Notes: a model not told the origin generated them from the sequence alone. Shown: positions 15,479 to 35,883, counted from the first letter of the stretch. The stretch: 40,925 nt of DNA from Candidatus Woesearchaeota archaeon (GCA_964653605.1 CAZZGW010000001.1:67964-108888); one strand, 5' to 3'. A program made the numbers and translations.

Positions 15479-15793
15479 TTATTCTTGTAGTTGTTTACCC
15501 GCTCTAATGCCACTTTTTTGGTATTTAGATTTATTGCATACCTTGCAAGTGTACATTATGTTTGTTTTTTTAGTTGTTTTTGATTTTCTTTTGTGTTTTG
15601 CCTGTGCTGGTTTAGATCCCCATTTTCCTTTGTTTCCAATACCCACACCTAATCCTCTTAGTTTTGCTCTTGCTCTTCCTCCACCTCTTGTCATTACTCC
15701 TCTTGAGAATCCTGTTCCTACTAATTTGATTTTTTGTTCAGTCTTTTTTTTACAACTTGGACAATATCTTTTTGTTGTTTTTGGAATCTTCAT
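15479..15793 (-). CDS. rpl44e: 50S ribosomal protein eL42 (L44e); start taken at internal Met of the 134-aa ORF
   Basis: MKIPKTTKRYCPSCKKKTEQKIK...YTCKVCNKS carries the CxxC...CxxC zinc ribbon and the basic composition of L44e. The 104-aa length fits the family. The 30 upstream codons overlap the divergent promoter region. Confidence 0.85.
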   Translation of the reverse strand: MKIPKTTKRYCPSCKKKTEQKIKLVGTGFSRGVMTRGGGRARAKLRGLGVGIGNKGKWGSKPAQAKHKRKSKTTKKTNIMYTCKVCNKSKYQKSGIRAGKQLQE

Positions 15794-15853
15794 AGTTTTA
15801 CTCTGGGAGATTGGTTTATAAAGTTTTTTATAGCATGGTCCCGCAGTTATTTC

Positions 15854-16129
15854 ATGAGAATTAGGTTTCAAAAGGGAAAACAAAGGGAATTTTTAAAATT
15901 AGTTTTGGAAAAAGTTAATGCTCCTTCTTTAAGGGAACTAATTAATAGAGGAATTGGTGTTAATTATTCTACTTTAAAGAATTATTTTAATGAAGAAAGA
16001 AATCTTCCCGAGAGTCTTTTTGATGAATTAATTGGATTGGGGGGGTTTGATAGGGGAGAATTTTCTTTTGAGGTCTTTGAAGATAGTTGGGGGCAGGTTA
16101 TTGGGGGAGAAAAATCTAGGAAAAATTAA
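15854..16129 (+). CDS. hypothetical small protein (91 aa from ATG 15854)
   Basis: The sequence is MRIRFQKGKQREFLKLVLEKVNAPSLRELINRGIGVNYSTLKNYF..., which may be HTH-like. The upstream part of the tracked ORF is antisense to rpl44e and is discounted. Confidence 0.4.
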   Translation: MRIRFQKGKQREFLKLVLEKVNAPSLRELINRGIGVNYSTLKNYFNEERNLPESLFDELIGLGGFDRGEFSFEVFEDSWGQVIGGEKSRKN

Positions 16130-16205: not shown

Positions 16206-16224
16206 TAAACAAGTTCGATTAAAA

Positions 16225-16296
16225 TGGTCCTGCCAGGAATTGAACCTGGATTTTATCCAAGTCAGGGATACGTCTTAGCCATTGGACTACAGGACC
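16225..16296 (-). tRNA. tRNA-Val(GAC): tRNA-Val (anticodon GAC), unusual U at position 37
   Basis: Hand-folded. Acceptor is GGTCCTG/CAGGACC. Anticodon stem is TATCC/GGATA with loop CTGACTT. T arm is CCAGG-TTCAATT-CCTGG. Discriminator is A and the gene is followed by TTTT. Confidence 0.75.
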
Positions 16297-16298
16297 AT

Positions 16299-16784: not shown

Positions 16785-16794
16785 TTTATATATA
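16785..16794 (+). promoter_or_regulatory. candidate TATA element (TTTATATATA) upstream of the giant-protein operon
   Basis: This is the only strong TATA-like run in the gap and it is preceded by purine-rich AGAAAA. It lies 20 nt upstream of the GGAG at 16814-16817, which is rather close, so the transcription start site and this assignment are uncertain. Confidence 0.3.
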
Positions 16795-16824
16795 GGAATT
16801 ATCTTAAGTATTTGGAGTTTGATA

Positions 16825-16959
16825 ATGAAAAAGTATTTACTTCTTATAGAGGATGAGAAACTTTGGGAAAAGTTTAAGAAAGTTATTAAAAAAGATATAA
16901 ATACTGAGATCATAGAGTTAATAAAAGATAAAATTGGAGTAAAAGATAAAAATGAATAA
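16825..16959 (+). CDS. 44-aa ribbon-helix-helix-like small protein (not in ORF track), first gene of the giant-protein operon
   Basis: My translation is MKKYLLLIEDEKLWEKFKKVIKKDINTEIIELIKDKIGVKDKNE. The pattern is a beta strand (KYLLLI), helix A, an N-T-E turn and helix B, as in CopG/Arc/MetJ proteins. The SD GGAG lies 7 nt upstream. Its stop lies 8 nt inside the next gene (ATGAATAA). Confidence 0.4.
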   Translation: MKKYLLLIEDEKLWEKFKKVIKKDINTEIIELIKDKIGVKDKNE

Positions 16960-18781
16960 GCGGGGCCAATTAACAATTTTCATTATAATTGCCATACTTG
17001 TTGTAGCAATGGTCGTAGGATTCTTTGTTTTTTGGGATAGGCCAGGGCCTTCAAAAGTTCCAAGAAATTTTGAGCCGGTATATAATACATTTCTTACTTG
17101 TATAGAGGAAAATCTCCAGCTTGGGGTGGATGCTCTTTCAGTCCAAGGAGGATATATTGAATTGCCAGAATTTGAACCTGGCTCTTTGGCATTTCCATTT
17201 TCTTCTCAGTTAAACTTCGTTGGAACTTCTATTCCCTATTGGGATTATATTTCTGGAGGGGGAATGCACAAAACACAAATTCCTACCGTAGAGGATATGG
17301 AAGGGGAGTTGGAGGAGTTTGTTATTTCTAGAATGGATTATTGTAATTTTGATAGTTATTATGCTTCTGAGATGACTTTGCTTTTTGGTGAGGGAACTCC
17401 TAAAGTTAAGATAAAAGATGGGGAGGTTGTTTTGGATTTGGATTTGGATTTTGTAGCATCTCTTGAAGGAGAAACTATCTCAGTAGAAAGGCACCATATA
17501 GCAATTGTAACAAAGCTTGGAAGTTTGTATGAGGATGCTTTGAAAGTTTATGAGTATGAGCAAGAGGAAATGTTTTTGGAAGATTATGGCCTAGATGTTC
17601 TGAACTTATACGCTCCGGTTGATGGGGTTGAGTTTACTTGTGCCCCAAAAGTTTGGGTTGCGGATAATGTATTTTATGATATTGAAGAGGCGCTTGAGAT
17701 AAACACAATGGCAATGAAAGTTGGAAATGAAAAGGAATATTTTGATGTGGAGATTGGCACAAATAACGATGTCCGCTTTATCAATTCTAGACATTGGCCT
17801 AGAAGTTTTGAAGTTAATCCTAGCGAGGATAATATTTTAAGAGCAGACCCTGTGGGGAACCAGCCTGGAATGGGTATTTTAGGATTTTGTTATGTAAGTT
17901 ACCATTTTGTTTATAATATGAATTATCCTGTTTTAGTTCAGGTTCATTCTGGAGATTCTAATGAAGTTTTCCAATTTCCTATGGCTGTTGTTATCCAAGG
18001 GAATAGAGCAAGAGAGCCTTTGGCTGGAGATGCTCTCGGATTAGAGAAGGGAATAGATTTATGTGCTGGAATGAATAGCCCCACGCTTATTTCTGTTTAT
18101 GGTAATGACGGGAATAGGGTGGAAGCAAATCTTTCTTATAATTGTTTAAATGATAAATGTTACCTTGGGGGAACTGGGGGAGGGATATTTGAAGGTAATT
18201 TACCTCAGTGTGTTAATGGATTTATTTTAGCTAAAGCAGAAGGGTATGAAGAAGGAAGCTTTATGTATTCTAGTGTGGAGAGGGGCCAAGTTAATCTTTT
18301 CTTAGATAAACTCTATACCTTGGATTTGAATTTATTTATGGAGGGCAAAAGATATAGTGATGAGGCAATAATTAATTTTGTTTCGGAGGATAAAGTTAAA
18401 GCTGTTTATTATCCTCAACAAAAGCAGGTTGAACTTAGCGAGGGAGATTATGAAGTTAGAGTTTATGTTTATGCAGATTCTCGTTTAGAATTCCCTGAAA
18501 TGACCTATGAGCAATGTTATGACGTTCCTAGAGGGCCAATACTAGGTTACTTTGGAGCTACAAGAGAAGAATGTGTTGATGTTGAATATCCCGAACAGGC
18601 ACTTACAAATGCCTTAGTTGCTGGAGGAGCAGAAGAGCATTCTATTTCAGAGGACCAATTAAAATCTTCAAATGTTTTGGAAATTAACTTTGAGAGATTC
18701 CCAAATCCAAAAACAATTTCTCAGCTACAAGAAAACTATATTTTATTTGATCAGACGGGGGTGGATATTAAACTTAAATGA
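16952..18781 (+). CDS. 609-aa exported protein with class III (type IV prepilin-like) signal peptide; function unknown
   Basis: The N-terminus is MNKRGQ followed by LTIFIIIAILVVAMVVGFFVF. This gives a basic residue, Gly, Gln at +1 and then a hydrophobic helix, the archaeal prepilin peptidase substrate pattern. The remainder is an acidic, Cys-containing extracellular region. A beta-sandwich-like stretch (ISVYGNDGNRVEANLSYN...GFILAKAEGYEEGSF) is present. Confidence 0.85.
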   Translation: MNKRGQLTIFIIIAILVVAMVVGFFVFWDRPGPSKVPRNFEPVYNTFLTCIEENLQLGVDALSVQGGYIELPEFEPGSLAFPFSSQLNFVGTSIPYWDYISGGGMHKTQIPTVEDMEGELEEFVISRMDYCNFDSYYASEMTLLFGEGTPKVKIKDGEVVLDLDLDFVASLEGETISVERHHIAIVTKLGSLYEDALKVYEYEQEEMFLEDYGLDVLNLYAPVDGVEFTCAPKVWVADNVFYDIEEALEINTMAMKVGNEKEYFDVEIGTNNDVRFINSRHWPRSFEVNPSEDNILRADPVGNQPGMGILGFCYVSYHFVYNMNYPVLVQVHSGDSNEVFQFPMAVVIQGNRAREPLAGDALGLEKGIDLCAGMNSPTLISVYGNDGNRVEANLSYNCLNDKCYLGGTGGGIFEGNLPQCVNGFILAKAEGYEEGSFMYSSVERGQVNLFLDKLYTLDLNLFMEGKRYSDEAIINFVSEDKVKAVYYPQQKQVELSEGDYEVRVYVYADSRLEFPEMTYEQCYDVPRGPILGYFGATREECVDVEYPEQALTNALVAGGAEEHSISEDQLKSSNVLEINFERFPNPKTISQLQENYILFDQTGVDIKLK

Positions 18782-21700
18782 ATAAAAATTTAAAATTAAT
18801 TTTTGTATTTGCATTTGTTTTCTTATTTGTAATCTCTTTTGGTAGTGCGTATACAAAGTCATACCCTGACATTATGCAATATGTTGCAACAGGGGGGGTG
18901 GGTGCTTTTGCGCAAAATAGTTTGGCTTTTGATAAATCAATGTGCGAGACTGGAACTGATTTTTTATTACAAATTGTCCCTTTTAGTTGTGAACCAAATC
19001 CTATTAGAAGTGATTTGCTGGAAGAAGAAGATGTTGCTGTTTATTGTCAGATTGCTGCAACCCAAATAAATCCCTTAATTGATGTTGAGACAATTAAATC
19101 AATGAAAATAGTTCCGGATAGGAGCTTTGGAGGGGGGGTTGTTAAGAATATTGCTTATTATCCTTCACAGGCTGCTTTAGGAAGGATTCCTAGTGGGGTT
19201 GTTAATAATCCTATGCTGGAAAACTTAGGTTATGTTGTTATTATTGTTGGAAAAAATGCAAATGAATCTGCAATGCCTGATTTTGTAGAAGGGAATTTGA
19301 CTGCCACATTAAGATATGATATTCAGGGGGCTTTTGGAATTGGTAAGTCTGAATTTTATCTGCCTGTTTTAAGTGATTCCGAATTTCAAGATAGATATTT
19401 GCAATATGGTTTTTGGGATGGAAGAGGATACCTAAGAGCAGAAGGAGTTGGAGATCATGAGGCAAGAATTTCTATTTATTCTGACGCAGAAGTAACTACC
19501 GGATTTCCTTCAAGATCTGAAGGAAGAGATTATAGTCAATTAAGATATTCTTCTTATACTGTTGAGAGGGGTAAAGAATCTCCTGAAATTTATTTGCCGG
19601 GATTGAGTCCTTGCATGGCAGGATTTAAATTGAGGTTGAATGATGTAGAAAATCCAGATACCACTGCTCGTTTAAGAGTCAATTCTGAGGTTGTTGAAGT
19701 TAAGCAGGGAGAGAAATTTTTAGAGGATAAATGTACTGTTTTGAGTGTTGAACATCAAGGATTGCACCAGTCTGCAGAGATTCGTTGCATTGATGATGAT
19801 GGAAGAGGATATACCTCTTTATTGAGTAGATCTCCAGGAGTGGAGTTAGAATTTGATAAGGATAAGGATGGTCACCTCGATAAATTAGAATTTCAACTGG
19901 GAGATAAGATTTATTCGGATAGGAATAAAGATGTTTTCTTAGGATACGTTGGAAGTTTTGATAATTCTCTAGCTGAAAAGGATATGTTTGTTGTTCTTTT
20001 TGCTGCCCCTTCCGAAAGAGGAATTGTAAAGTTAGATGATACTCAACTGAGGGCCGTTGCAAGGTTTGTTAAGCATAGAACTAAAGATTTGGGGACTGGG
20101 GCTGCTTTTGTGGATAATTTTGTAAATTCTCTTTCTGCTTTGTCTGCGGTTTCTGTAGAAGGAGTTACTTGGTTGGTTAAAGGAGAAGATTTTGAGATTC
20201 TTATTAAGCGTGGTGATGGAGAGAGATTTAAATCTAGAGAAATTGAATTAAATGGTTTCTCTTCTTCTGGAGGGAGTGATTATTTCTCTGCTTTGGATCT
20301 TAATTCAAATTCTAGAGGTTACTATGACAATGCTATTGAGGATTTTGAAACTGTTGAGGATTTCTACTCGGAAGTATCTGCTGCGGATGGTTCTTTTGAT
20401 TCTTTAGGAGAGCAAGCTCTTTATGAGGCTTTAGTGCTTGCTAGCAGGGTTGGAGAGACAGAAAATTTACTAACTTTTTGTGATGAGTTTATTGAGTATT
20501 ATCCTAATTCTTTGGTGATGCCGAGAGTAAATCTTCTTTGTTATGATGAATATACAATTTCAAATACGGGGGATAATATTTTTGAAGTTTTAATTAATGG
20601 AGACTTAAAAGAAATAAGTTTAGAAAGAGTAAGGAATCCAACCTATGAGCAGTACGGGGCTGAAATTTATATTAGAGGTCCTAATGGAAAAGTAGAGTTG
20701 GTTAAGCTTGGAAAAGATGAAATTTTCTTTTTAGATGGATTTAGAGGGCAAGTAGATTATGATTCTCAAGAAAACATTCCTGAAGATGAAGAAGAGGTTT
20801 CTTCTTTTGAAGATATAGAAACTCCTGGTTTGAAGTTGAAAATTAAAGATTCTAAGAATGTTATGTATAAATATTACAAGGGGGCTTGGTATATGAGGGT
20901 TTGGAGAAAAGGGTTGATACAAGATCACGATGACACAATTCCTGGGGAGAACTTTATAAAATTAGAAACTTTTGATTCTGGCCTCTCAAAAGTTAGTTTG
21001 GAGAATAGGGACAAGAGAATAATAGATGATCTTAAAGATAAAGATTATGCAGAAGGAATGAAGATGCTTGTGGATATTGTTCTTGGGGAAGATGGTGCGT
21101 CTTTAGGATTAGAAAGTTTTTCGGATATGACTCATCTTAAAAGTGATGGAAGATATGTGAATACCCAAGGAAATTCAAGGGATGTGGATTTTAGATTTGA
21201 TAAATCAACAGAAAAATGGTACTGGGGAAGTGATGCTAGTGTTCTTGGAAGAGCCTCCTGGATTGATGTTTCTGAATCTGGAGGAGATCAAGAAAAGTTC
21301 CTTAATGAGGATGGAGAAAAAAATAAAGCTACGGTTCTGAGAAATATGGGTCTTTATGAGGGAACTGCGTTTTTATTCTGGCATGATTCTTCTTACAACG
21401 AGAATACAGATGATAATTTCGATTATGATATAAGGGTTTCTGATACGGGAAAAATAGAACTTGGATTTAATCCAGAATCAATTGCTTTGGAAGATTTAGG
21501 AGATGATAGGGCAACTATTAATTTCCAAAGGGTTGAGAATTTTGTTGAGAGAAATTTTGTTACAGATAATAAACAGCTTACTTTGAATAAAGAAATTTCT
21601 ATTGGGGATTATTATGTAACTCTCAAGGATATTCATCTTGAAAAAGTTGCTAGGGTTACTGTTGTTCCAATGGTAAATAATCAATTCTCAAATTCTACTT

Positions 21701-24700
21701 TTCCCTATAGGGTTGCAATTGAAAAGAGAAAATTCCCTATGTCCGATGAAAGGATAAATGAAAAAATTGAGACGCTTGATGGGAGGATTGAGTGGCTGAA
21801 TACTACTGCAGAATACTTAGAAACAACAGTTGAAATAGGGAACAAGGTTTGTACAGGGGTTGGTCTTGGATTAACACTTAAGAATTTAATAAATAATATG
21901 AACGGGGGATCAATTGCAAGAACTTCTGTTATGCAAGGGAAAGGGGGATGGAATGAGGTCTGTCAGAAAGCGATGGCCGCAAAAGAACCAGAATATAGTT
22001 CCTTAGATGATTGTTTCTTGGAGCATTCTAAGGAAATAGACAATGATGTTAAAATGTACACAGATATTTTGAAAAGCCAAAATGATGCTCTGGCTCGTTG
22101 TGAGGGAGAAGTTAAAGGAGATGATGGAAACTTTGCAGAGAGATCTTATATAAATCAACAGCAATTGGTTGATTGTTATTTGGAGAATAGGATTAATGAT
22201 CCGAATAGTGGTTTGGGAGATACTTTAGATCAATTGGAAAGTAAAGGATATGTTGGACCAGATGGAAAATTCTATGCAAAGTTGGCAGAAGATGGTGTCA
22301 CTCCTTTGGGTGTGGGGGTGGATATCTCTGAAATTGATGAAGTTTTAAGTAAGAAAGTGGATGATGAAAATTATGCATTTAAGAAAAATGTATATTCCGT
22401 AGAACAATTAAAGGAAATTGAGTATTATAGTCTTGCACTTCAGGAAGATCCCGCTAATGATATGGCTAGGGAAAGATTGTACTCTTCTTTGACTGATTTG
22501 GAAAAGAATGCAAGGAACTTTAATCAAATTTCTGAAGTTGCTAATAGGGCAAACATTGATATTGATAAGGTAGGATATACTTATACTGGAGACTTAAAAC
22601 AACAAAGGGAAAATATCTATTTAGGATTAACAAAAGGAACTTATAACCAAGCGAGAAATATTCCAAATGTTGAAAATGGAGAGCCAATCTATGTTTCTGG
22701 GTCTAATCATGGAAGTTTTATGGTGGTTTTAGCAGACACCGAAGATAGTGGGGATGGAAGTAAAATGGCTGTAAAGAGAGATGATGATGGGCCTTTGATT
22801 TATGATTTAGAAGGAGAGAGAATATTTAGGCAAAAAGGAGATGATAATAATGAAGGGACAGCAATAATAAATGCAGTTGAAAACACAGTTTATGTAAAGA
22901 GAGATGCCGCTTCCTATAGAAATCCTTATACTAATCCTAGAGTTAAGTATTTTGATAACGAATTAACTGGAGGATATCCAGCGGTTGTTCCTGTGGATAC
23001 TGTTAATGGATGGTATGCTGCAACTAAATCAACTTTGCCTGTTGGAGGAAATATAGCCGCTTTTGATAAATCTGGAGTTGTTAGGAGCTTTTGGTTGTGT
23101 AATGTTGGAGAAAATGGGCTTGAAGAATATATTTCTGGAGATGATATTTGTAGCATGATTAATCTTGGAACAGGAGATGATTACACTGCTTTCCATAACT
23201 TGGATCCAAGTAAAGTTGAAAATTTAATTAGACAAGCAACAAGAAATATTGAAGAAGCTCAAAGCGCCAATAAGAATTCTAGAGGGTGGGTTACTATAGA
23301 TAGAAAGAGGTATCAAGTTGGTCAACCTCAAGCCGAAATTCCTTCAGTCCAATGCCAAGATTTAATGTCTCCTAAAGATTGTAGTTTAATGTATAACTTT
23401 TGTGATCCTTTTGTTTGTCCTAGTTCAAGATGTGATCTAGGAGGAAAGTATCCTGTAAGGGATGTTGTTCAATCTGGAATTTTTGGAGGGGTCGTTTTAT
23501 GTTACCCTAATGCTAAATGGCATGGAGGGGATGTTTATGTTCCGATTTGCGTTTCTGCAATAAGTGCGGGTGTAGATGGATGGTTACAAGTTAATAAAGG
23601 ATATAGAGATTGTTTGCAACACAATTTGGATACTGGAGAGACAGTTGGAATTTGTGACGAGATGCATAGTATTTACTTGTGTGATTTCTTTTACAGGCAG
23701 GCGAAACCTATTCTACAATTAGGAATTACTGAGCTTGGTTCTGCTTTATTAGGGCAAAATAGTCGTGGAGGTGGAGAATATATGACCTTTAAGAATGCTA
23801 TTAGTAATGCTGGAGATTCAATAGATTACTTTAAACAATATTACGCTGCAGAGGCATATAGGGCATTTAAACTTAGATCTGTGGATCAAATAAGTATTAA
23901 TGATCCTTGTGGGACTTTCCAGTCAGTAATTTTTCCAAATAGTGGAGAGGTTTTAGATTCATTAACTCAAGCCAGATCTCCTGTTCAGTTTACTGGTAAA
24001 TTTGAAGAAATGCAATTAACAACAATTACAAATCCTCCAACTTCGCACTATAAAGTTTATTATCAGATTTATGCTGGAAAAGATTCTGGGGCTTACTATC
24101 AAGTTTATTTGAGAGGAGGTAGTGGTAGCGATTATTATAGAGATACAACTTTTGATAGAATTGTTGATTCTGGACATATTGCTGCTGGGCAGAGTGTTTT
24201 TAATACAGAAGATTTCCAGGCACCTTCTGGCTACAAAGAGCTTTGTGTTGTTGTAAATGGCCAACAAGAATGTGGGTTCCAACAGGTTTCTACTTCCTTT
24301 GGAATTAACTATCTTAGTGATCTTTATATGAATCAACAAGCTAGCGAAACAGATATTAAAACAGAGAAAGAATGCATTTCTGGGTCTTCTAGTATGTATC
24401 AACTATTAAATCCTAATTTGCAGTCTGCTGCAGAAAATATTATTGATCCTGCCGTGTATAATAATGGATTATATAGAAAGTGTGCAACCCACGATCCTGG
24501 GGCTGGGGTGGATAGTAAAGCTGGAACAGAAGATGCACGTTGGGTGAAAGTAGGTTATTGTGGGGACACAAGTATTGGGTGTTGGATTGATACGGATAGT
24601 GTAAAGGATGTAATAAAACATTTGGGGTTAGAAGAAGATGCATTGAACAAAACTTCTGAGAATTTTCTTGATGAATTGTTTGAAGATGGAAACTATCTTA

Positions 24701-27700
24701 GCGATGATGAATTTAATGATGTTTTATTGAGTGTAGATGATGCTGAAGAGGGGGAAGCCAAACTTAGGATTTTAACAAATATCTTAGAAAGAATCTTTTG
24801 GAATAACCAAAAAGCAATTGTACATTTTAAGAGAGGAGAAGTTTTTGCAAGTATGGTAAATGCAGAGAAGTGCCCTTATTACTGTTGGGGGGAACAAAAG
24901 GGAGCCCAAGCAAACGAATATGTTGATGGAAAGTTGTATTATGGGATTTATAGGCCTAATTCAGATAAATGTTCTCGTAGTGATGAAATTGCAGAAGACT
25001 GTGAAAAAGGATGCCATGATCCAGATGGATATGGTCAGGGAGACCCTGCTATCTGTTTGAATGATGTTCCTCTTTCTGTAGAAGATGTTAAGGATTTAGA
25101 AAATAAAGATTCTTCTGAGTTTGAATTTAATTCTGGAGGAATAAATCCATTTAGAACTTATTGTTATGCGTTTGTTGCGGGAGAAGGATGGTTTTGGATT
25201 AATAAAAAATGTGGGTTCGCTGTTATTGGAGAAGAGGATTCTGAGTGGAAGAGTGTTGGAGAGGCTGGGGAGGCAAAAGGAGTTCACTATGATGTCACAT
25301 ATAGTTTGAATGGTAAGGGTTATTGGGGTGGTTTAGTTACTTTAATGAATGGTCTTAAAAGTGGGAAAACTGGAAGAAATGCAAAGATAACTGCAATGGA
25401 ATCTAAAACTGAAATTACGCATGGGTCAGTTGGTGATTCTGCTATTGTTACTTTCAAATTTGTAGCCCCTAAAGTTGCTGGAGAGAGGTTCTTTTCCAAT
25501 GAAGATAGTAATTTTTATTCTTCTTCTACAAATGGTTGGACTTACTTCTTTGGGCATAAAGAGCTTGATAATGGAAGAAGCTTTTATTCTGGAGTTGAAT
25601 GGGGAGAATTTGCTGCTGGAACTGGTTTGTCCCTACAATATTTTGATTTTGCTAATTGGTTTTTTACTAAGAACAATAAAGAAGGAATTTTAATTTTAAT
25701 TGGAGATTTGCCTGTTGACTATGAGGCATCTGAAATAGACATTAATGAGGAAGGAGTTAAAGATTATTGTAGTATATTAATGGGAGAATGTAAGAATTCT
25801 CTTGATTGTATGGGACCAATTTTTGAGAAAATTGTTACTCCTGATTGTGAAGACCTTGGAGAGATTTGTTGTGTTGATGGAGTTCCTCCCGGAATGGATG
25901 TTTTTGGTTATTGTGGGATGTTGGATGGAGAATGTTTGGGTTCTTCTGAGTGTGTAGGTCCTGTTTATGAAGGAATTGCTACTCCTGATTGTGAAGATGT
26001 TGGGGGTGTGTGTTGTGTTTCAATTGCAAGCATCCCCGGGGAAGACCCCGTGTCTGGGGAATGCAGTGATTGTAAATCAGGCTTCTGGGATATATGTGCT
26101 GAAGAGGAATGTTTAGAGATTGAACAGAAAACAGGAAGAGATTGCGTTTTTGCTAAGAATACTTTTGGTATTGGGGGTGTTTGTTCTGAAAAAGGGGAAG
26201 AGCCCCAAGAAGAGGTAGATGCTCCAACAGAGTGTAGTGATTGTAAAGATAATTATTTTGAAAAATGTACCCAAGAAGAATGCTCTGAAATTGGAATGCA
26301 GTTGAATAAAAATTGTGTTTATAAAAGAGCATTGGGGATATTTGGAAATTGTGTTGAGGAGGAGTTGAAAGTAATTGTTTGTCCAGAGGATTTAGATTCA
26401 GATGAGATTGAACCTGGAGATAAAGTTATTTGCGATGTTGTTCCGGCAGAAGAAGCTGAAGATGTTAGTGATAGTGCTAAATTTATTATCCCTTCTGGAA
26501 TTGATCCAGGAGAGATTGTTTGGTATGAAATCCCAGATGTTAGGGGAGACGAATATAATAGGGACGCTATAGTTTTTGAAATTCCAGACATTATTGAAGT
26601 CGGAACAGAAATAGAAGCAGAGATTGTAGAGATTGCAGAGGTTAAAGAATTTGAAGATGATTTTATTGGTTTGCCTTGCGGAGAGATGGGGGCTTTTGGG
26701 CAATGTATTTCTATTGATTCTGAAAGAGATCCTTTGGGGCTTAATTCTTGCGAGGGGAATGTTAGAAAGTTAGATTGTCCTGGGGGAAGTAATATTAGGT
26801 GTTGCATTCTAGATAGTCAGTTTGTTGGAGATCCTTGCGGTTTGGATGGAACTTGTCTAGATAGAAATTTTCTAGGAACTTCTTGTGATGGAGATTGGCA
26901 AACTGGTCTTTGTGGGGGGACAAGTGCTATTCAATGTTGTGTTCCAGAATCTCTTCCTCCTGATCCAAATCCTGATGAGAATTTAGAAAAAAAGATAGTT
27001 TGTAATGATTTTAGTGATGGGGACGGATGGACTTTAGAAAGAGGATGCGATATAAAAGTTCCTGATGCTAACGATCTTGAAAATAAAATCATTTGTCCTG
27101 TTCCGCCTGTAAGAGTTTACGAACAGATTAATTGTAAAGTCCCAGATGAAAGTGAAGAAAAACCTTTTTGGTGTAATATAATTGGAAGTTCAAATAATCC
27201 TAGTGAAGCAGATTGTTATGTCCATGGAGGGGAGAATTTAGGCCCTACCACAAACGTGAGAGTTTTGGAAGAAGTAGAACAACAGGATGGAGAAATTGTG
27301 CCTGGAACAACTTTTGCAACATATGAAGAAGGGGGAGTTCTTGCTAAGAAAAATGCTCACTGTGCCACTGCTATATATAATCTCCTTGGAGAAGCAGGGT
27401 GTGGAACTTCAGGAGCTGTTTATGGGGTTCCTAGTGGAGATAATTTTAATATTTATAGGGGAAGTATTCTTTCTGTTCTAGTAGGTTCTGGAGATGGTTG
27501 GAGGTGCACAACATCTGCTAGAAGTTCTAATAAAGTTTATGGGGTTGTTTTAAATGAATTGGTTCCCGGACAGTATTTAGATGTTGTCTTTGACACTAAT
27601 AATGCAGGGGAAACAATATGCCACACACTTATTTTTATGGGCTGGGAAGATAGAGATAATTATAGGGCAGTAATTTTTGACTGGATAGGCGGCAACTTAA

Positions 27701-27861
27701 ATTTGGGCACTGGGGGATGTACTTCTGATGATGCAGAAGGAGGGGTTTGTCATACGTATGGCTATGAAATAGTTAGTTTAAGAGAAAGTGCCATCTCCGG
27801 AGAAACTAATTATCCTATATACAGAGTTATGAGGCCCGTTGTTGATGATCAATTTACTTAG
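18778..27861 (+). CDS. giant secreted cysteine-rich protein (3027 aa), unknown function, C-terminal putative papain-fold hydrolase domain
   Basis: A 9084-nt open frame without interruption in an AT-rich genome cannot plausibly be chance. It has a Sec-type signal peptide (MNKNLKLIFVFAFVFLFVISFGSA/YT) and I see no later TM segment. The start overlaps the upstream stop (ATGA). Internal Cys-rich repeats and a C-terminal Cys/His/Asp pattern are described in the findings. Confidence 0.9.
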   Translation: MNKNLKLIFVFAFVFLFVISFGSAYTKSYPDIMQYVATGGVGAFAQNSLAFDKSMCETGTDFLLQIVPFSCEPNPIRSDLLEEEDVAVYCQIAATQINPLIDVETIKSMKIVPDRSFGGGVVKNIAYYPSQAALGRIPSGVVNNPMLENLGYVVIIVGKNANESAMPDFVEGNLTATLRYDIQGAFGIGKSEFYLPVLSDSEFQDRYLQYGFWDGRGYLRAEGVGDHEARISIYSDAEVTTGFPSRSEGRDYSQLRYSSYTVERGKESPEIYLPGLSPCMAGFKLRLNDVENPDTTARLRVNSEVVEVKQGEKFLEDKCTVLSVEHQGLHQSAEIRCIDDDGRGYTSLLSRSPGVELEFDKDKDGHLDKLEFQLGDKIYSDRNKDVFLGYVGSFDNSLAEKDMFVVLFAAPSERGIVKLDDTQLRAVARFVKHRTKDLGTGAAFVDNFVNSLSALSAVSVEGVTWLVKGEDFEILIKRGDGERFKSREIELNGFSSSGGSDYFSALDLNSNSRGYYDNAIEDFETVEDFYSEVSAADGSFDSLGEQALYEALVLASRVGETENLLTFCDEFIEYYPNSLVMPRVNLLCYDEYTISNTGDNIFEVLINGDLKEISLERVRNPTYEQYGAEIYIRGPNGKVELVKLGKDEIFFLDGFRGQVDYDSQENIPEDEEEVSSFEDIETPGLKLKIKDSKNVMYKYYKGAWYMRVWRKGLIQDHDDTIPGENFIKLETFDSGLSKVSLENRDKRIIDDLKDKDYAEGMKMLVDIVLGEDGASLGLESFSDMTHLKSDGRYVNTQGNSRDVDFRFDKSTEKWYWGSDASVLGRASWIDVSESGGDQEKFLNEDGEKNKATVLRNMGLYEGTAFLFWHDSSYNENTDDNFDYDIRVSDTGKIELGFNPESIALEDLGDDRATINFQRVENFVERNFVTDNKQLTLNKEISIGDYYVTLKDIHLEKVARVTVVPMVNNQFSNSTFPYRVAIEKRKFPMSDERINEKIETLDGRIEWLNTTAEYLETTVEIGNKVCTGVGLGLTLKNLINNMNGGSIARTSVMQGKGGWNEVCQKAMAAKEPEYSSLDDCFLEHSKEIDNDVKMYTDILKSQNDALARCEGEVKGDDGNFAERSYINQQQLVDCYLENRINDPNSGLGDTLDQLESKGYVGPDGKFYAKLAEDGVTPLGVGVDISEIDEVLSKKVDDENYAFKKNVYSVEQLKEIEYYSLALQEDPANDMARERLYSSLTDLEKNARNFNQISEVANRANIDIDKVGYTYTGDLKQQRENIYLGLTKGTYNQARNIPNVENGEPIYVSGSNHGSFMVVLADTEDSGDGSKMAVKRDDDGPLIYDLEGERIFRQKGDDNNEGTAIINAVENTVYVKRDAASYRNPYTNPRVKYFDNELTGGYPAVVPVDTVNGWYAATKSTLPVGGNIAAFDKSGVVRSFWLCNVGENGLEEYISGDDICSMINLGTGDDYTAFHNLDPSKVENLIRQATRNIEEAQSANKNSRGWVTIDRKRYQVGQPQAEIPSVQCQDLMSPKDCSLMYNFCDPFVCPSSRCDLGGKYPVRDVVQSGIFGGVVLCYPNAKWHGGDVYVPICVSAISAGVDGWLQVNKGYRDCLQHNLDTGETVGICDEMHSIYLCDFFYRQAKPILQLGITELGSALLGQNSRGGGEYMTFKNAISNAGDSIDYFKQYYAAEAYRAFKLRSVDQISINDPCGTFQSVIFPNSGEVLDSLTQARSPVQFTGKFEEMQLTTITNPPTSHYKVYYQIYAGKDSGAYYQVYLRGGSGSDYYRDTTFDRIVDSGHIAAGQSVFNTEDFQAPSGYKELCVVVNGQQECGFQQVSTSFGINYLSDLYMNQQASETDIKTEKECISGSSSMYQLLNPNLQSAAENIIDPAVYNNGLYRKCATHDPGAGVDSKAGTEDARWVKVGYCGDTSIGCWIDTDSVKDVIKHLGLEEDALNKTSENFLDELFEDGNYLSDDEFNDVLLSVDDAEEGEAKLRILTNILERIFWNNQKAIVHFKRGEVFASMVNAEKCPYYCWGEQKGAQANEYVDGKLYYGIYRPNSDKCSRSDEIAEDCEKGCHDPDGYGQGDPAICLNDVPLSVEDVKDLENKDSSEFEFNSGGINPFRTYCYAFVAGEGWFWINKKCGFAVIGEEDSEWKSVGEAGEAKGVHYDVTYSLNGKGYWGGLVTLMNGLKSGKTGRNAKITAMESKTEITHGSVGDSAIVTFKFVAPKVAGERFFSNEDSNFYSSSTNGWTYFFGHKELDNGRSFYSGVEWGEFAAGTGLSLQYFDFANWFFTKNNKEGILILIGDLPVDYEASEIDINEEGVKDYCSILMGECKNSLDCMGPIFEKIVTPDCEDLGEICCVDGVPPGMDVFGYCGMLDGECLGSSECVGPVYEGIATPDCEDVGGVCCVSIASIPGEDPVSGECSDCKSGFWDICAEEECLEIEQKTGRDCVFAKNTFGIGGVCSEKGEEPQEEVDAPTECSDCKDNYFEKCTQEECSEIGMQLNKNCVYKRALGIFGNCVEEELKVIVCPEDLDSDEIEPGDKVICDVVPAEEAEDVSDSAKFIIPSGIDPGEIVWYEIPDVRGDEYNRDAIVFEIPDIIEVGTEIEAEIVEIAEVKEFEDDFIGLPCGEMGAFGQCISIDSERDPLGLNSCEGNVRKLDCPGGSNIRCCILDSQFVGDPCGLDGTCLDRNFLGTSCDGDWQTGLCGGTSAIQCCVPESLPPDPNPDENLEKKIVCNDFSDGDGWTLERGCDIKVPDANDLENKIICPVPPVRVYEQINCKVPDESEEKPFWCNIIGSSNNPSEADCYVHGGENLGPTTNVRVLEEVEQQDGEIVPGTTFATYEEGGVLAKKNAHCATAIYNLLGEAGCGTSGAVYGVPSGDNFNIYRGSILSVLVGSGDGWRCTTSARSSNKVYGVVLNELVPGQYLDVVFDTNNAGETICHTLIFMGWEDRDNYRAVIFDWIGGNLNLGTGGCTSDDAEGGVCHTYGYEIVSLRESAISGETNYPIYRVMRPVVDDQFT
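25765..26019 (+). repeat. tandem duplicated 6-Cys module, pair 1 (within the giant CDS)
   Basis: YCSILMGECKNSLDCMGPIFEKIVTPDCEDLGEICCV aligns with YCGMLDGECLGSSECVGPVYEGIATPDCEDVGGVCCV (aa 2330-2414). Confidence 0.85.
26056..26364 (+). repeat. tandem duplicated 6-Cys module, pair 2 (within the giant CDS)
   Basis: GECSDCKSGFWDICAEEECLEIEQKTGRDCVFAKNTFGIGGVCSEKGEE aligns with TECSDCKDNYFEKCTQEECSEIGMQLNKNCVYKRALGIFGNCVEEE (aa 2427-2529). Confidence 0.85.
26671..26943 (+). repeat. tandem duplicated 6-Cys module, pair 3 (within the giant CDS)
   Basis: LPCGEMGAFGQCISIDSERDPLGLNSCEGNVRKLDCPGGSNIRCCI aligns with DPCGLDGTCLDRNFLGTSCDGDWQTGLCGGTSAIQCCV (aa 2632-2722). Confidence 0.8.
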
Positions 27862-27867
27862 CTAGAA

Positions 27868-28287
27868 TTATTTAATTCTGACGGAATCTCCGAGTTCTAG
27901 GCTTGAAATATCAAGGCCAGGGTTTAGACGAAATATGTGTCCTTCTTTTTTTCCTGTATTATAATATAAGTTTCCTAATCTTTTGAGTATATTTTCCATG
28001 TAAGCTGTATCTAGAGGGTTTATTGTGTGGTAGACTGTGTCTTTTTCTTTCATTCTTTGCGATGTTTCTTCCGAGCTCATTTTATATTTTATAACAAGTT
28101 TTCTTAACCTTTCCATTTTCATTTCTTCTTTTTCTTCAGGGTCTAATTCTCTCTTTATTGTGTCTTGGAATACTACTTTCTCAATAGTGTTTTTAACGGG
28201 GAAGTTAGTGTTTTCAATAGAATCATAATTTGGAGTACCCATGCTGGTTGCTGTTGCTAAAAGTAGTGGGATTAAGATTTTTTTCAT
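27868..28287 (-). CDS. small secreted protein (139 aa) with weak LysM-like C-terminus
   Basis: The signal peptide is MKKILIPLLLATATSMG. The C-terminus VYHTINPLDTAYMENILKRLG...IFRLNPGLDISSLELGDSVRIK loosely follows the LysM pattern (Y.V..GDT...IA......L..LN.L....L..GQ.L.IP). Its start abuts the stop of the upstream lipoprotein gene. Confidence 0.6.
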   Translation of the reverse strand: MKKILIPLLLATATSMGTPNYDSIENTNFPVKNTIEKVVFQDTIKRELDPEEKEEMKMERLRKLVIKYKMSSEETSQRMKEKDTVYHTINPLDTAYMENILKRLGNLYYNTGKKEGHIFRLNPGLDISSLELGDSVRIK

Positions 28288-29319
28288 TTATTTTAAACCG
28301 GCATCTATTTCTTGCTGGAGCATTTTTTCAAGATATGCTTTTCTTACTTTTATAGAATCCATTTGTCTTTCGTGTTCTGCGTCTAAAAGCATTCTTTTTT
28401 CCATTTCTTCTCTATATCTCATATAATCTGTTATATCTTGAGGCATTTCTGACTGTGTTGGTTGTACAGAAGTGGAATCGGCAGGTTGTGTTGGTTGTTC
28501 TGTTTCTTTTTTTCCAAAACATCCACAGTCTTCTGCATCTGTTTGGTTTTCTTCTATAATTGGTCTGAAAAAACCTTTATCATTAGCAATTATTAGTGTT
28601 TTCTTACCCTGGTCTACAGTACCTTTGGTGTTATCTGTTATTGGAATAAATACTTCTGGTAAAGAACCTTCTGGAGTGTACATTGTTACTTGTTCTAAAA
28701 CTCCAACTCCTTTAGAATTTTCTTTCCTTACAAAATAGTTTGCTTTTTCTCCATCAAAGTATAAATAATCACAACCTTCTATTTCTACTCTTGGAATTTT
28801 TTTCTTAAAACTTCCACTATTAAAATTAAAAGCATGTCCGAAAGCTTTTTTATCCCCATTTCTTTTAGCTTTTCTTAATTCTCTTGTTACTTTTGCCTTT
28901 ACTCTTCTATCAGTTATTTCTACAGCTGCTATTGATTGTCCTTTTTTAACTAGTTCTGTAGGAACATATTTTTGTCCTTCTAAGGTTGATTCTCCGGTGT
29001 TCGTATCTACTGCTTCCCAGATTCTTGCTTCTTCAAAAGGGGTCATTGTGAAGGGTAATTCTCCTCCATCCTGGTCAGTGTTTTTTACCATAAAATATTC
29101 TCTTTGTTTTCTTTTGCTTCCTTCGAATAAAACTTGCCCTTCTAATTGGTATTTGTTTTTCGTTTCACTTTGAGAATAATGATTTCCTTTAATAGATCCT
29201 TCTATATATGATCCTTTAGAATTATCTGCTTTGTTGTCAGAATTACAAGAAGTTAATGTAGGGGCTAAAGTTGCTCCTAGTAACATTGCTGTAAGTCCTA
29301 ATCTTTTTATTGTTTTCAT
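28288..29319 (-). CDS. putative lipoprotein (343 aa), unknown function
   Basis: The signal peptide carries a lipobox: MKTIKRLGLTAMLLGATLAPTLTS-C. A P/T/Q-rich linker (ETEQPTQPADSTSVQPTQSEMPQ) and a C-terminal charged helix follow. Confidence 0.7.
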   Translation of the reverse strand: MKTIKRLGLTAMLLGATLAPTLTSCNSDNKADNSKGSYIEGSIKGNHYSQSETKNKYQLEGQVLFEGSKRKQREYFMVKNTDQDGGELPFTMTPFEEARIWEAVDTNTGESTLEGQKYVPTELVKKGQSIAAVEITDRRVKAKVTRELRKAKRNGDKKAFGHAFNFNSGSFKKKIPRVEIEGCDYLYFDGEKANYFVRKENSKGVGVLEQVTMYTPEGSLPEVFIPITDNTKGTVDQGKKTLIIANDKGFFRPIIEENQTDAEDCGCFGKKETEQPTQPADSTSVQPTQSEMPQDITDYMRYREEMEKRMLLDAEHERQMDSIKVRKAYLEKMLQQEIDAGLK

Positions 29320-32056: not shown

Positions 32057-32915
32057 ATGAGAAAACACCATAGGATAATTTTAGGGGGATTTAGTACGAT
32101 AGTTGTAGCATTCATGGTTATAACAGGAATCTTGCTTAATGGTTTAATTGTTAAACAGCAAATTAATCATAATGAAGTTGTTGATAAAATAGATACTTTG
32201 CAGATTGATACCCAGAGTAAATTAAATGAGTTAACAGAGAATCTTATGGAAACTATGGGGGATGTTGATACTCTAAATGGCAAGGTGGGTGTGATTAATC
32301 AGGAATTTGAATTGTTAAAAGACTCTACTGGTGGAGATTTTTCAGAGGTTATAGAGAATTCTATCCCTTCGGTGGTTACTATAAAAACAGATATTAGTCA
32401 GGGAACGGGTTTTGTTATTTCCAGTGATGGTTTCATAATAACTAATGCGCATATTTTGTCGGGGGGGGAAAAGAGTTGAAACTTGGAATTATGAACAACT
32501 TGTCTTTAGGACATCCTTTGTAGGGTATGATAGCGAGTTAGATTTAGCATTATTAAAGATTATTGGGGTTTTTGATCCTTTAGAATTTACTGATTCAAAT
32601 CCTGTTCATGTGGGAGAAGAAGTAATTGCTATTGGAAATCCGCTTGGGTTGCAATATAGTGTCTCTCAGGGAATTGTTTCTGGCGTCCATAGGAAAGGGC
32701 CAAATGGGTTGAATATTTATATTCAAACAGATGCAGCGTTAAATCCGGGTAATTCTGGAGGGCCTTTGATTAATACTAATGGAGATGTTATAGGAATAAA
32801 TAATTTTAAGAGTTCTTCTGGGGAGAGTTTAGGTTTTGCTTTGGAGTCTAATTCCATAAAAGAAGCTGTAAATCAAATTGCGCAAAATGAATTAAATATA
32901 ACTATTTTGAGTTAA
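32057..32915 (+). pseudogene. HtrA/DegP-like trypsin-fold serine protease (no PDZ domain) interrupted by a +1 frameshift at a G8 tract
   Basis: ORF 32057-32479 carries a TM segment, a coiled coil and the His box (GTGFVISSDGFIITNAHIL). ORF 32445-32915 carries the Asp box (DLALLKI) and Ser box (GNSGGPLIN). The two frames switch at GGGGGGGG (32461-32468). Deleting one G fuses them as ...NAHILSGGKRVETW... Confidence 0.8.
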
Positions 32916-34839: not shown

Positions 34840-35883
34840 TTATTTTTTGTTTAAAATATTTTTTATGTTATTTTCTAATTTATCTATGTCATTTATGTTA
34901 ATTTGGGCTCCAACTGCATTTATGTGTCCTCCGCCTGTAGAGTTTTCTAGAGGTTTTATTGCTTCCAACACTAGTTCCTTTACATTTTCCCCTCTTGCAG
35001 AGATATTGGCCTTTGGGCCTTTTGTAAATATTACAAGAATTATCTTTTCGGGGAATAAGAAACTTAGTTTATTTGCGAGATCTGCACTCATACTTGTGTC
35101 CCCCGCATATTTGAATAGGAGAAGGTTTCCAGAAACTTCTTTTTTTGCTTTTTCTATAAATTTATTGAAACTTTTTTCTATATTTGCGAATCTTAAAGTA
35201 AGTATTTTATTTTCTTTTGATTCGTTTAGGATGTCATAGGGATTTTTTGCATTGTTTAGGACTTTTATCATTTGGATCACGTTTGAAATCCTATCTTTTA
35301 ATCCAAATCCTATCATTCTTGATACTTTTCCTATTTCGGAATTATAAAGTATTTCAAAAGGATCTTTGGAATCTACTGAGAGCTCAGGATATTCTTCTTT
35401 GAATTGTTCATAAAATTTTGGGGTAAAGTGATCTGCAACGCATCCAACAACTCCTAACCAAGAATCTTCTTTTTTGTTTGTTATTTGATAACACAAAGCT
35501 GTTGTCGGCTCTGAAGTTTTTTCTTTATTATATACGGGATTGTAATAATTAATAAATTCTGGAACATAAAAGTCTTCTATTTCATGATGGTCTATCCAGA
35601 CCGTAGGAATATTATTTTCTCTAACCTCTTCAAAAAATTCTTTTGATACTTCTGGCTGGTCTAATATAAAAATATAATCTGCATTTAGTTCCCTAATTTT
35701 TCTAAAATAGTCTTTTGTCATTTCTGGGGAAACTTTTATTGGATACCCTTTTCCCCTTTTAATGAATCTCTTCAATAATATAAAACTGCATAATCCATCC
35801 TGGTCATTATCAAAGAAAAATAAGGGATTTTGGGCTTTGTCTAGATGTTCTCTAATTTCTTTTACTTGTTTTTCTGTTAACAT
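34840..35883 (-). CDS. stand-alone DHH/DHHA1 phosphoesterase (NrnA/Pde2-like); candidate c-di-AMP/pApA phosphodiesterase
   Basis: DHH motifs FFFDNDQDGLCS and WIDHHE are present, as is the DHHA1 motif GGGHINAVG. It is 347 aa long and lies 7 nt downstream of disA on the same strand. Confidence 0.75.
   Translation of the reverse strand: MLTEKQVKEIREHLDKAQNPLFFFDNDQDGLCSFILLKRFIKRGKGYPIKVSPEMTKDYFRKIRELNADYIFILDQPEVSKEFFEEVRENNIPTVWIDHHEIEDFYVPEFINYYNPVYNKEKTSEPTTALCYQITNKKEDSWLGVVGCVADHFTPKFYEQFKEEYPELSVDSKDPFEILYNSEIGKVSRMIGFGLKDRISNVIQMIKVLNNAKNPYDILNESKENKILTLRFANIEKSFNKFIEKAKKEVSGNLLLFKYAGDTSMSADLANKLSFLFPEKIILVIFTKGPKANISARGENVKELVLEAIKPLENSTGGGHINAVGAQININDIDKLENNIKNILNKK

Follow-up and report, generated by a model that had tools for sequence, protein, structure and literature searches.

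A giant secreted protein of a Woesearchaeota archaeon belongs to a large DPANN family with a conserved scaffold, an adjoining partner and a variable tail that may carry wall hydrolases

Few uncultivated archaea are as widespread as Pacearchaeota and Woesearchaeota, and the gene described below bears directly on the question of which hosts these abundant archaea have. Here, we analyse a stretch of 40,925 nucleotides (nt) from Candidatus Woesearchaeota archaeon (GCA_964653605.1 CAZZGW010000001.1:67964-108888), called the window in what follows, in which a single gene encodes a secreted protein of 3,027 amino acids (aa). The window is AT-rich (GC about 0.28-0.39) and carries archaeal housekeeping genes, namely those for ribosomal proteins L10P, L1, S3Ae, L44e and S15, Gins51, GatD, ProRS, SRP54, FtsY and deoxyhypusine synthase. 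The giant protein is not an isolated oddity. By sequence similarity, it is one member of a large lineage-specific family, made up of a conserved scaffold and a variable tail, and its gene is accompanied by that of an obligate partner. The tail ends in a domain with a conserved Cys-His-Asp triad, and peptidoglycan-hydrolase domains are recognised in the tails of relatives. We propose that the partner and the giant scaffold form a surface-tethered complex presenting exchangeable wall-hydrolase heads that would act on bacterial peptidoglycan, a reading whose chances of being right we put at about even.

The open reading frame (ORF) is single and intact over the whole 9,084 nt that the original prediction, made from the DNA alone, had assigned to it, and the largest ORF antisense within it has 162 aa (26319..26807), the upper limit that had been given. 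At the window's frequency of stop trinucleotides (0.062), 3,027 codons would stay open by chance with a probability of about 3e-85. Along the whole gene, GC content is uniform and so is GC skew, and no DNA tandem repeats were found in it. A long frame of this kind might nevertheless be an artefact, either a misassembly fusing several genes, which the original prediction had named as a possible refutation, or a non-functional or chance open frame. In favour of an artefact, the same contig holds at least one probable indel error or slippery tract, where a trypsin-like gene is split at a run of eight G (32461-32468). Beyond the chance probability and the uniform composition, the artefact is contradicted by the conservation of catalytic and cysteine residues and by colinear relatives in hundreds of independent assemblies. 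In particular, the ortholog from the closest genome (P0002, 2,844 aa), which comes from an independent assembly, is colinear with residues 23-3026. Because that assembly repeats the gene model together with its core-tail junction, a misassembled fusion is very unlikely, and an artefact of either kind is scarcely credible. The split gene itself encodes a Trypsin_2 protease (32057-32915, plus strand) and is read as two overlapping ORFs (32057-32479 and 32445-32915) at the homopolymer GGGGGGGGAAAA; this could reflect an indel introduced in sequencing, a tract prone to slippage or a pseudogene.

The N-terminus of the giant protein, MNKNLKLIFVFAFVFLFVISFGSA/YTKS (the slash marks the predicted cut), shows n-, h- and c-regions with small residues at positions -3 and -1, and the 'S-A/Y' cleavage site is kept in the family consensus. 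Hydropathy, residue pattern and family-wide retention of the site thus support the Sec signal peptide that had been predicted. Kyte-Doolittle hydropathy exceeds 1.3 (19-residue windows) at aa 1-28 only, so that past the signal peptide the scan shows no further hydrophobic segment, as had also been proposed, and no hydrophobic or sorting tail is seen at the C-terminus. The composition, described beforehand as acidic and rich in Gly, Asp, Glu and Tyr, corresponds to a pI (isoelectric point) of 4.41 with 9.5% G, 8.4% E, 8.3% D and 4.6% Y; the protein has 90 Cys. The giant ORF is a genuine gene, the product of which is exported by the Sec pathway and has no membrane anchor of its own.

Relatives of the protein were searched for in a collection of 5.8 billion proteins. 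More than 334 were found, of 1,900-3,060 aa and 36-48% identity, and the named matches are Pacearchaeota or 'uncultured archaeon'; the 119 best-scoring were listed. With the core region as query, an exhaustive HMMER scan of the representatives of clusters at 50% identity gave 1,144 clusters with E<=1e-3, 920 of them with E<=1e-30. Finally, a survey in which each GTDB species was represented by a single genome gave 461 loci. All of the 80 that were listed come from archaeal metagenome-assembled genomes (MAGs), nearly all labelled Pacearchaeota, Woesearchaeota or Nanoarchaeota, the exceptions being a few called simply 'archaeon' and one labelled Diapherotrites. No relatives were found when IMG/VR viral contigs were scanned with the core. 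The locus is chromosomal and vertically inherited: among 82 related loci, which also served for the counts of the partner, of a 44-aa ORF and of the downstream genes given below, L44e lies upstream in 52 and S3Ae in 46, in addition to the absence of relatives on viral contigs. Judged by sequence, the giant protein therefore belongs to a large family that is confined, in the collections searched, to DPANN archaea of the Pacearchaeota/Woesearchaeota type. Strong selection had been postulated from the cost of such a protein, and it finds its counterpart in a scaffold that is 36-51% identical over at least 461 species-level genomes and has 20 invariant Cys in its core. SRP54 of the window is 87% identical to that of 'Ca. 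Woesearchaeota' MAG CAYURQ01, the source genome of the closest ortholog, whereas the two giant proteins are only 43% identical over the N module; the values for core and tail are 47% and 27%. On these figures, the giant protein, and above all its tail, changes far more rapidly than housekeeping genes do, as expected for an interaction protein.

Coverage by the 119 relatives delimits two conserved blocks, aa 1 to about 650 and about 900 to 2011, with a variable insert between them and a variable tail after them; over aa 1-650 and 900-2011, the matches to the listed relatives have E = 0 and 36-51% identity. The N module has eight Cys, seven of them invariant in alignment A8. The core contains long invariant motifs, for example QCQD.MSPKDC..(F/Y)N.CDP..CPSSRCDLGG, and its highly conserved Cys-rich segment (aa ~1520-1710) reads 'QCQDLMSPKDC..CDPFVCPSSRCDLGG' in the window protein. 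The invariant Cys and motifs of the core fit a protein that is extracellular and held by disulfide bonds. Modelled with AlphaFold2, aa 881-2011 gave a structure of mediocre confidence (mean pLDDT 63, pTM 0.43). It would begin with a beta-sandwich, continue with long helices of about 50 residues (aa ~990-1258) and a beta-rich region, and then pass through a poorly modelled Cys-rich helical segment and an Ig-like beta-sandwich (aa ~1737-1834) to an alpha/beta end. Foldseek comparison of this model with the PDB gave nothing at E<=1e-3, with only generic beta-sandwich matches of about 115 residues, and a fold assignment for the core was dropped on account of these matches and of the mediocre model. 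Against PDB sequences, profiles of the N module and of the partner gave noise only, and that of the core showed no relationship either. An internal duplication and a paralogy between partner and giant protein were also considered and rejected, as hhalign showed no relationship among N module, core, partner and tail domain.

Searched whole and as six or seven pieces against Pfam, NCBIfam and PHROGs, the giant protein matched only a sub-threshold EF-hand loop in Pfam. The original prediction had called its sequence mostly unrecognisable. This stands for the curated libraries, which gave no significant match, but not for the C-terminal third, where modules found across the family and the Cys-His-Asp domain can be identified. 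The loop just mentioned, DKDKDGHLDKLE (window 19855-19890, aa 360-371), is a canonical EF-hand calcium-binding loop. As a family feature it was discarded: it sits in a private six-residue insertion, and an N-module loop of this kind is seen in only five of 244 members.

The tail is a mosaic. Its modules were counted with locally iterated hidden Markov models (HMMs) over 244 family proteins, and they are shuffled in more than 25 architectures across the family. A Trp-rich module, called W, is found in 126 of the 244 proteins (213 instances), mostly after the core. The window protein has one copy between its scaffold blocks and a divergent second copy after the core, the latter matching the W-module HMM with E 2e-6. 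Three types of Cys-rich unit follow, each in two copies. Repeat A (C..L.GEC..S..C.GP..E.I.TPDCED.G..CCV) was not found in the other family members, module B (ECSDCK....C..EEC.EI......C........G.C.E) occurs in 62 family proteins (75 instances) and repeat C (PCG..G.C......C.G.....C.G.....CC[IV]) in three. The short Cys repeats were read by eye; self-BLAST did not report them. With respect to known domains, a Pfam survey of 70 complete tails taken from related loci found SLT in 19, VanY, glucosaminidase, DUF1615 and a weak NLPC_P60 in one each, and ankyrin repeats in one, and precomputed annotations of other relatives add M23, YkuD, LRR and Trypsin_2. SLT (PF01464, GH23) is not universal, being present in 15 of the 119 best-scoring relatives and in 19 of the 70 locus-derived tails; in the window giant protein or its tail, Pfam gives no SLT match.

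The commonest tail domain of the family is the Cys-His-Asp domain with which the window protein ends. Of the 120 best-scoring family proteins, 66 have it, and so do 95 of the 244 overall; it is sometimes present twice and stands alongside SLT in seven of the 15 SLT-bearing members. Over 99 instances of the domain, the triad is conserved in 97/97 (Cys), 97/97 (His) and 86/96 (Asp). The stretch 'PGD-x(8-12)-H-x-x-I-F' resembles the NlpC/P60 motif 'GDL....H.GIY'. Among 30 members, sub-threshold Pfam matches are to NLPC_P60 in four (best E 0.016) and to Amidase_6 in two (best E 0.0047), and a few members have a weak PHROG match to 'minor tail protein', also below threshold. The AlphaFold2 model of the domain (pLDDT 72.6, pTM 0.75) has its best Foldseek match in BFVD at E 6.6e-4 (TM 0.41). 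The next BFVD matches are two 'CHAP domain containing proteins' and a 'Lysin' (CHAP/Lysin probability 0.92-0.93), a TIGR02594 protein and a D-alanyl-glycyl endopeptidase. Among the top, weak matches in the PDB are the NlpC/P60 dipeptidyl-peptidase VI, Gsp CHAP amidase and staphopain (TM ~0.25). The indications of a CHAP/NlpC-P60 type of fold converge but are weak, and the domain is probably a divergent papain-like (CHAP/NlpC-P60-like) hydrolase, not a demonstrated member of either family. Phage genomes searched by tblastn with the domain, and PDB sequences searched by phmmer with the last 227 aa of the giant protein, yielded nothing. A protein homology search with the profile of the domain gave one fragment only, which was uninformative.

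By tblastn, the gene of the partner lies immediately upstream of the giant gene in 71 of the 82 loci, that is, in 71 of the 71 that have upstream DNA. In one of them (L001), the same 4-nt overlap is found and the partner is 48% identical to that of the window. The partner begins with MNKRG/QLTIFIIIAILVVAMVVGFFVF, where a basic and a small residue are followed by Gln and by Phe four residues on, after which come about 20 hydrophobic residues. All of 27 partner sequences have both Q6 and F10. A class III (prepilin) signal pattern, which we take to be of the FlaFind type, [KRDE][GA][ALIFQMVED][ILMVTAS]x3, is matched by 22 of the 27 partners (KRG/QLTI in the window) vs. none of 26 giant-protein N-termini. 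At its N-terminus, the partner thus looks like an archaeal protein with a class III (prepilin-type) signal or anchor. The remainder is an extracellular domain that contains cysteines, and the partner has no match in Pfam, NCBIfam or the PDB. The absence of an anchor, put forward in the original prediction, hence holds for the giant protein itself; for the system it does not, since the adjoining partner, present in every locus with upstream DNA, probably supplies one through its prepilin-like N-terminus.

A small ORF of 44 aa precedes the partner gene. Its product is encoded in the same position in L001 and is detected by tblastn upstream of the partner in 21 of the 82 loci. It is possibly a small regulator; a ribbon-helix-helix reading was set aside, having no Pfam support and a guessed fold. 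Further upstream, the TTTATATA box is the putative promoter of the operon, and GGAG can be read at 16814-16817. Around the operon, a 131-aa ORF (15734-16129, plus strand) is conserved in 20 of the 82 loci, and a tRNA-Val(GAC) gene (16224-16297, minus strand) lies between this ORF and the promoter. On the other side, two convergent genes on the minus strand (27868-28287, 139 aa, and 28288-29319, 343 aa) are hypothetical and have no Pfam match; they are found in one and none of the 82 related loci, respectively.

The mechanism that we propose would be as follows. The 44-aa ORF, the partner gene and the giant gene would be transcribed as a three-gene unit from the TATA box at 16785, and translation of the last two would be coupled via the ATGA overlap. 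After presumed prepilin-type processing, the partner would stay in the membrane, or enter a pilus-like structure, by its prepilin-type helix and hold the giant protein at the surface. The disulfide-rich scaffold (aa 25-650 and 900-2011, with its long helices) may then serve as a stalk or platform that presents the tail, with its binding modules (W and Cys-rich) and one or more cell-wall hydrolase heads. Here, the head would be a papain-like amidase or peptidase with Cys2862, His2949 and Asp2968. In relatives, it would be the same domain, SLT or both and, more rarely, VanY, M23, YkuD or glucosaminidase. At the contact site, the head would cut the peptidoglycan of a bacterial host or prey, for attachment, cell access or scavenging. 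Of this picture, the integrity of the gene, its place in the family, the layout of scaffold and variable tail, the obligate partner, the conserved triad and the peptidoglycan-hydrolase domains of relatives are shown; tethering by the partner, prepilin-type processing, activity and substrate of the terminal domain and a bacterial target are inferred.

Several points weigh against this mechanism. No known fold is recognised in the scaffold, so that to see it as a stalk is conjectural. The prepilin call rests on the assumed pattern: Pfam models of pilin and archaellin N-termini did not match the 27 partners at E<=1, and no prepilin peptidase or assembly genes are encoded in the 41-kb window. No peptidoglycan-binding domain (LysM, SH3b, PG_binding) is recognised in the giant protein, and 59 of about 243 family proteins have none of the three locally modelled tail modules. 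As for the terminal domain, its assignment as a hydrolase is below every curated threshold, the window domain itself having no Pfam match. Its model finds nothing in the PDB at E<=1e-3 by Foldseek, with TM-scores <=0.41, and its profile finds nothing among PDB sequences. Compared by hhalign with four E. coli NlpC/P60 proteins, it gives 6.7% probability, aligns in the PGD..H segment only and scores no better than unrelated control pairs. Lastly, the domain is internal in 61 of its 99 instances, a position that also fits a processing peptidase.

This last point opens another possibility: the Cys-His-Asp domain could be a self-processing or releasing peptidase, or the targets could be archaeal envelopes (pseudomurein, proteinaceous walls), with delivery resembling that of polymorphic toxins. 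In those 61 instances, the domain follows directly after the core and precedes other modules, and a papain-like fold alone leaves the substrate unfixed. Polymorphic toxins, too, combine conserved sequence in their N-terminal and central parts with a C-terminal tail that is shuffled (PMC3482391), and all cultivated DPANN archaea are reported to have archaeal hosts (PMC11291902). However, in the window protein, the domain forms the extreme C-terminus and would have nothing downstream to release. No immunity-type gene lies next to the giant gene, its downstream neighbours being convergent and almost never retained. The enzymatic tail domains of relatives are mainly peptidoglycan-specific (SLT, VanY, M23, YkuD, glucosaminidase), save one Trypsin_2, and none of their recognised tail domains is a nuclease, a deaminase or a pore-forming toxin. 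We consider this explanation distinctly improbable.

A structural role has also to be weighed, in which the giant protein and its anchored partner would make up the main two-component surface layer (S-layer) of Pacearchaeota and Woesearchaeota, the tail modules being accessory decorations. The pair is near-universal and apparently single-copy, at a conserved chromosomal site beside ribosomal protein genes; one operon combines a large anchor-less secreted protein with an anchored partner; the large scaffold is rich in disulfides and contains elements of beta-sandwich type; and no S-layer protein is reported for these lineages in the literature searched. On the other hand, an identity of 36-51% along the scaffold and long invariant motifs across at least 461 species-level genomes amount to much stronger conservation than S-layer proteins usually show. 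In archaeal S-layer glycoproteins, N-X-S/T sequons are as a rule abundant, whereas the giant protein is strongly depleted in them, with five vs. about 20 expected from its composition. Neither Pfam nor the PDB nor Foldseek reveals a sequence or fold similarity to known S-layer proteins, and we know of no S-layer with enzymatic wall-hydrolase heads. An S-layer function is thus unlikely, if less than far-fetched.

It is possible, and we advance it tentatively, that the ~1,750-aa scaffold and the prepilin-like partner constitute an undescribed archaeal surface apparatus with interchangeable peptidoglycan-cutting heads, near-universal in Pacearchaeota and Woesearchaeota. The heads would then comprise SLT, a new Cys-His-Asp hydrolase family, VanY, M23 and YkuD, attachment to or predation on bacteria would be a common, ancestral lifestyle of this large DPANN clade, and the chemistry of the host wall could be read from the type of head. 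Tail domains that proved to be active as peptidoglycan hydrolases would be direct molecular evidence of these archaea engaging bacteria. The giant gene and its partner are among the few large, lineage-wide and clearly extracellular systems in these tiny genomes, where they take about 11 kb, or roughly 1-2% of a typical genome at its inferred size. The system offers tractable pieces, the domain of about 200 aa with its predicted Cys/His/Asp triad and the partner-scaffold pair. Pfam, NCBIfam and PHROGs do not cover the Cys-His-Asp domain, the W module or the scaffold, and a description of all three would improve the annotation of more than 1,000 protein clusters. The features of the locus are collected in Table 1.

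Table 1. Features of the giant-gene locus, numbered from the first nucleotide of the window.
Feature	Position	Strand	Details
TATA-box-like element TTTATATA	16785..16792	+	Preceded by an A-rich stretch resembling a B recognition element (BRE); ~33 nt upstream of the ATG of the 44-aa ORF
Small 44-aa ORF MKKYLLLIEDEKLWEKFKKVIKKDINTEIIELIKDKIGVKDKNE	16825..16959	+	Overlaps the start of the partner gene; from the ORF list
Partner gene	16952..18781	+	609 aa; stop overlaps the ATG of the giant gene (ATGA, 4 nt)
Giant gene	18778..27861	+	ATG start, 3,027 codons plus stop; 335-kDa product
Predicted Sec-type signal peptide	18778..18849	+	aa 1-24; predicted cut GSA/Y; from hydropathy and family alignment
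N-terminal scaffold module	18850..20727	+	aa 25-~650; spanned by 115-119 of the 119 relatives
Trp-rich W module, copy 1	20947..21402	+	aa 724-875, between the scaffold blocks; iterated local HMM
Core scaffold	21475..24810	+	aa 900-2011; covered by ~119 of 119 relatives
Post-core region	25060..25752	+	aa 2095-2325; includes the divergent second W module, aa 2168-2265
Cys-rich repeat A, two copies	25768..26019	+	aa 2331-2414; read from the translation
Cys-rich module B, two copies	26059..26358	+	aa 2428-2527; local HMM
Cys-rich repeat C, two copies	26674..26943	+	aa 2633-2722; read from the translation
Terminal Cys-His-Asp domain	27268..27840	+	aa 2831-3021, ~170 aa; putative catalytic C2862, H2949, D2968

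Some further observations concern other genes of the window and of the related loci. The tblastn match to SRP54 spans ~1,950-2,050 nt vs. ~1,320 nt in loci L088, L104, L112, L113, L124, L141, L151, L153, L163 and L165, which implies an insert of ~650 nt within the gene that may be an intein or an intron; SRP54 of the window (6014-7387) does not have this insertion. Two contigs of the survey are labelled 'Omnitrophota bacterium' (L113, DATJPO010000003.1) and 'bacterium' (L161, DAITPU010000001.1), with an SRP54 70-71% identical to that of the window; they are probably mis-binned or mislabelled DPANN contigs. Finally, a gene for a DisA-type diadenylate cyclase (DAC and DisA-linker, 35891-37000, minus strand) adjoins that of a DHH/DHHA1 phosphoesterase (34840-35883, minus strand), a possible pair for c-di-AMP synthesis and degradation, of bacterial type, in a DPANN archaeon.

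Several known systems can be compared with the one described here. Muralytic enzymes of phages and conjugative elements, in which CHAP or NlpC/P60 is combined with SLT or lysozyme, and minor tail proteins of the lambda-gpK type share with the window family a papain-like domain found alone or with SLT. Phage lysins and CHAP proteins are among the best structural matches of the tail-domain model, to which the weak PHROG 'minor tail protein' match can be added. In contrast, there is no significant match to Pfam CHAP or NLPC_P60, to PDB sequences or to phage genomes, and the domain is carried by a 2,800-aa archaeal scaffold without relatives on viral contigs and not by a virion or conjugation protein.

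The original prediction had suggested a comparison with the giant proteins of DPANN, CPR (candidate phyla radiation) and Omnitrophota genomes. On the Omnitrophota and CPR side, it comes down to an analogy, with no sequence relationship found. Among DPANN giants, the SPEARE proteins of Nanohaloarchaeota have 3,300-8,500 aa, serine-protease, laminin-G and restriction-endonuclease domains, a transmembrane segment and a cytoplasmic part (PMC6642349). Like the window protein, they are giant, mostly extracytoplasmic, proposed to act in host attachment or attack and encoded by a large share of a tiny genome. Unlike them, the window protein has no SPEARE domains in Pfam searches and no later hydrophobic segment, and no homology was detected. 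The 'Archaeovorins' of Omnitrophota are bacterial and rich in glycosyltransferase, methyltransferase and TPR domains (bioRxiv 10.1101/2023.11.21.568195). They too are giant proteins of ultrasmall host-dependent organisms, some with SLT and peptidase domains and a proposed role in the degradation of prey walls. However, they are 10-30 times larger, their proposed target lies in the opposite direction, a bacterium attacking archaea, and there is no sequence relationship.

Polymorphic toxin systems have in common with the window family a conserved N-terminal and central region and recombining C-terminal modules (PMC3482391). They differ in that the window locus has no immunity gene, the giant protein lacks RHS, filamentous-haemagglutinin and known trafficking domains, and the C-terminal domains of the family would be wall hydrolases, not intracellular toxins. 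In the SlaA/SlaB S-layer of Sulfolobales, a large anchor-less secreted protein is likewise encoded alongside a smaller anchored partner (PMC6911244). There, the anchor is a C-terminal transmembrane helix, whereas that of our partner would be N-terminal and prepilin-like. The giant protein is moreover sequon-poor and belongs to a family with enzymatic tails, and neither sequence nor fold similarity links the two pairs. The comparisons with SPEARE, the Omnitrophota giants, muralytic enzymes of phages and conjugative elements, polymorphic toxins and SlaA/SlaB amount to no more than analogies of function.

The relationship is closer with a group of SLT proteins, extracellular and with up to ~3,000 aa, that have been described as specific to Pacearchaeota and Woesearchaeota (Castelle et al., 2021, PMC8204110). 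Such SLT giants were proposed to bind and degrade bacterial walls (PMC8204110; PMC9723730), the proposal of Vigneron et al. concerning Woesearchaeota AR20 and Lake A MAGs (PMC9723730). The idea of a giant extracellular wall-degrading protein is thus already published, and the window protein is a further member of a family noticed before but never characterised. In the available portions of these accounts, which characterise the family by SLT, we found neither the conserved scaffold of members with and without SLT, nor the obligate prepilin-like partner and the small upstream ORF, nor the Cys-His-Asp tail domain, the W and Cys-rich modules and the minority status of SLT. The SLT giants and the window family have the same lineages, size range and predicted extracellular location; they differ in that the window protein has no SLT, its candidate enzyme being the Cys-His-Asp domain. 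A correspondence with cluster fam00969 would follow from the verbal description available in that publication (Castelle et al., 2021). The SLT-bearing relatives share the ~1,750-aa scaffold with the window protein at 36-51% identity, and the window family appears to be the one that Castelle et al. (2021) described as 'large extracellular lytic-transglycosylase proteins'.

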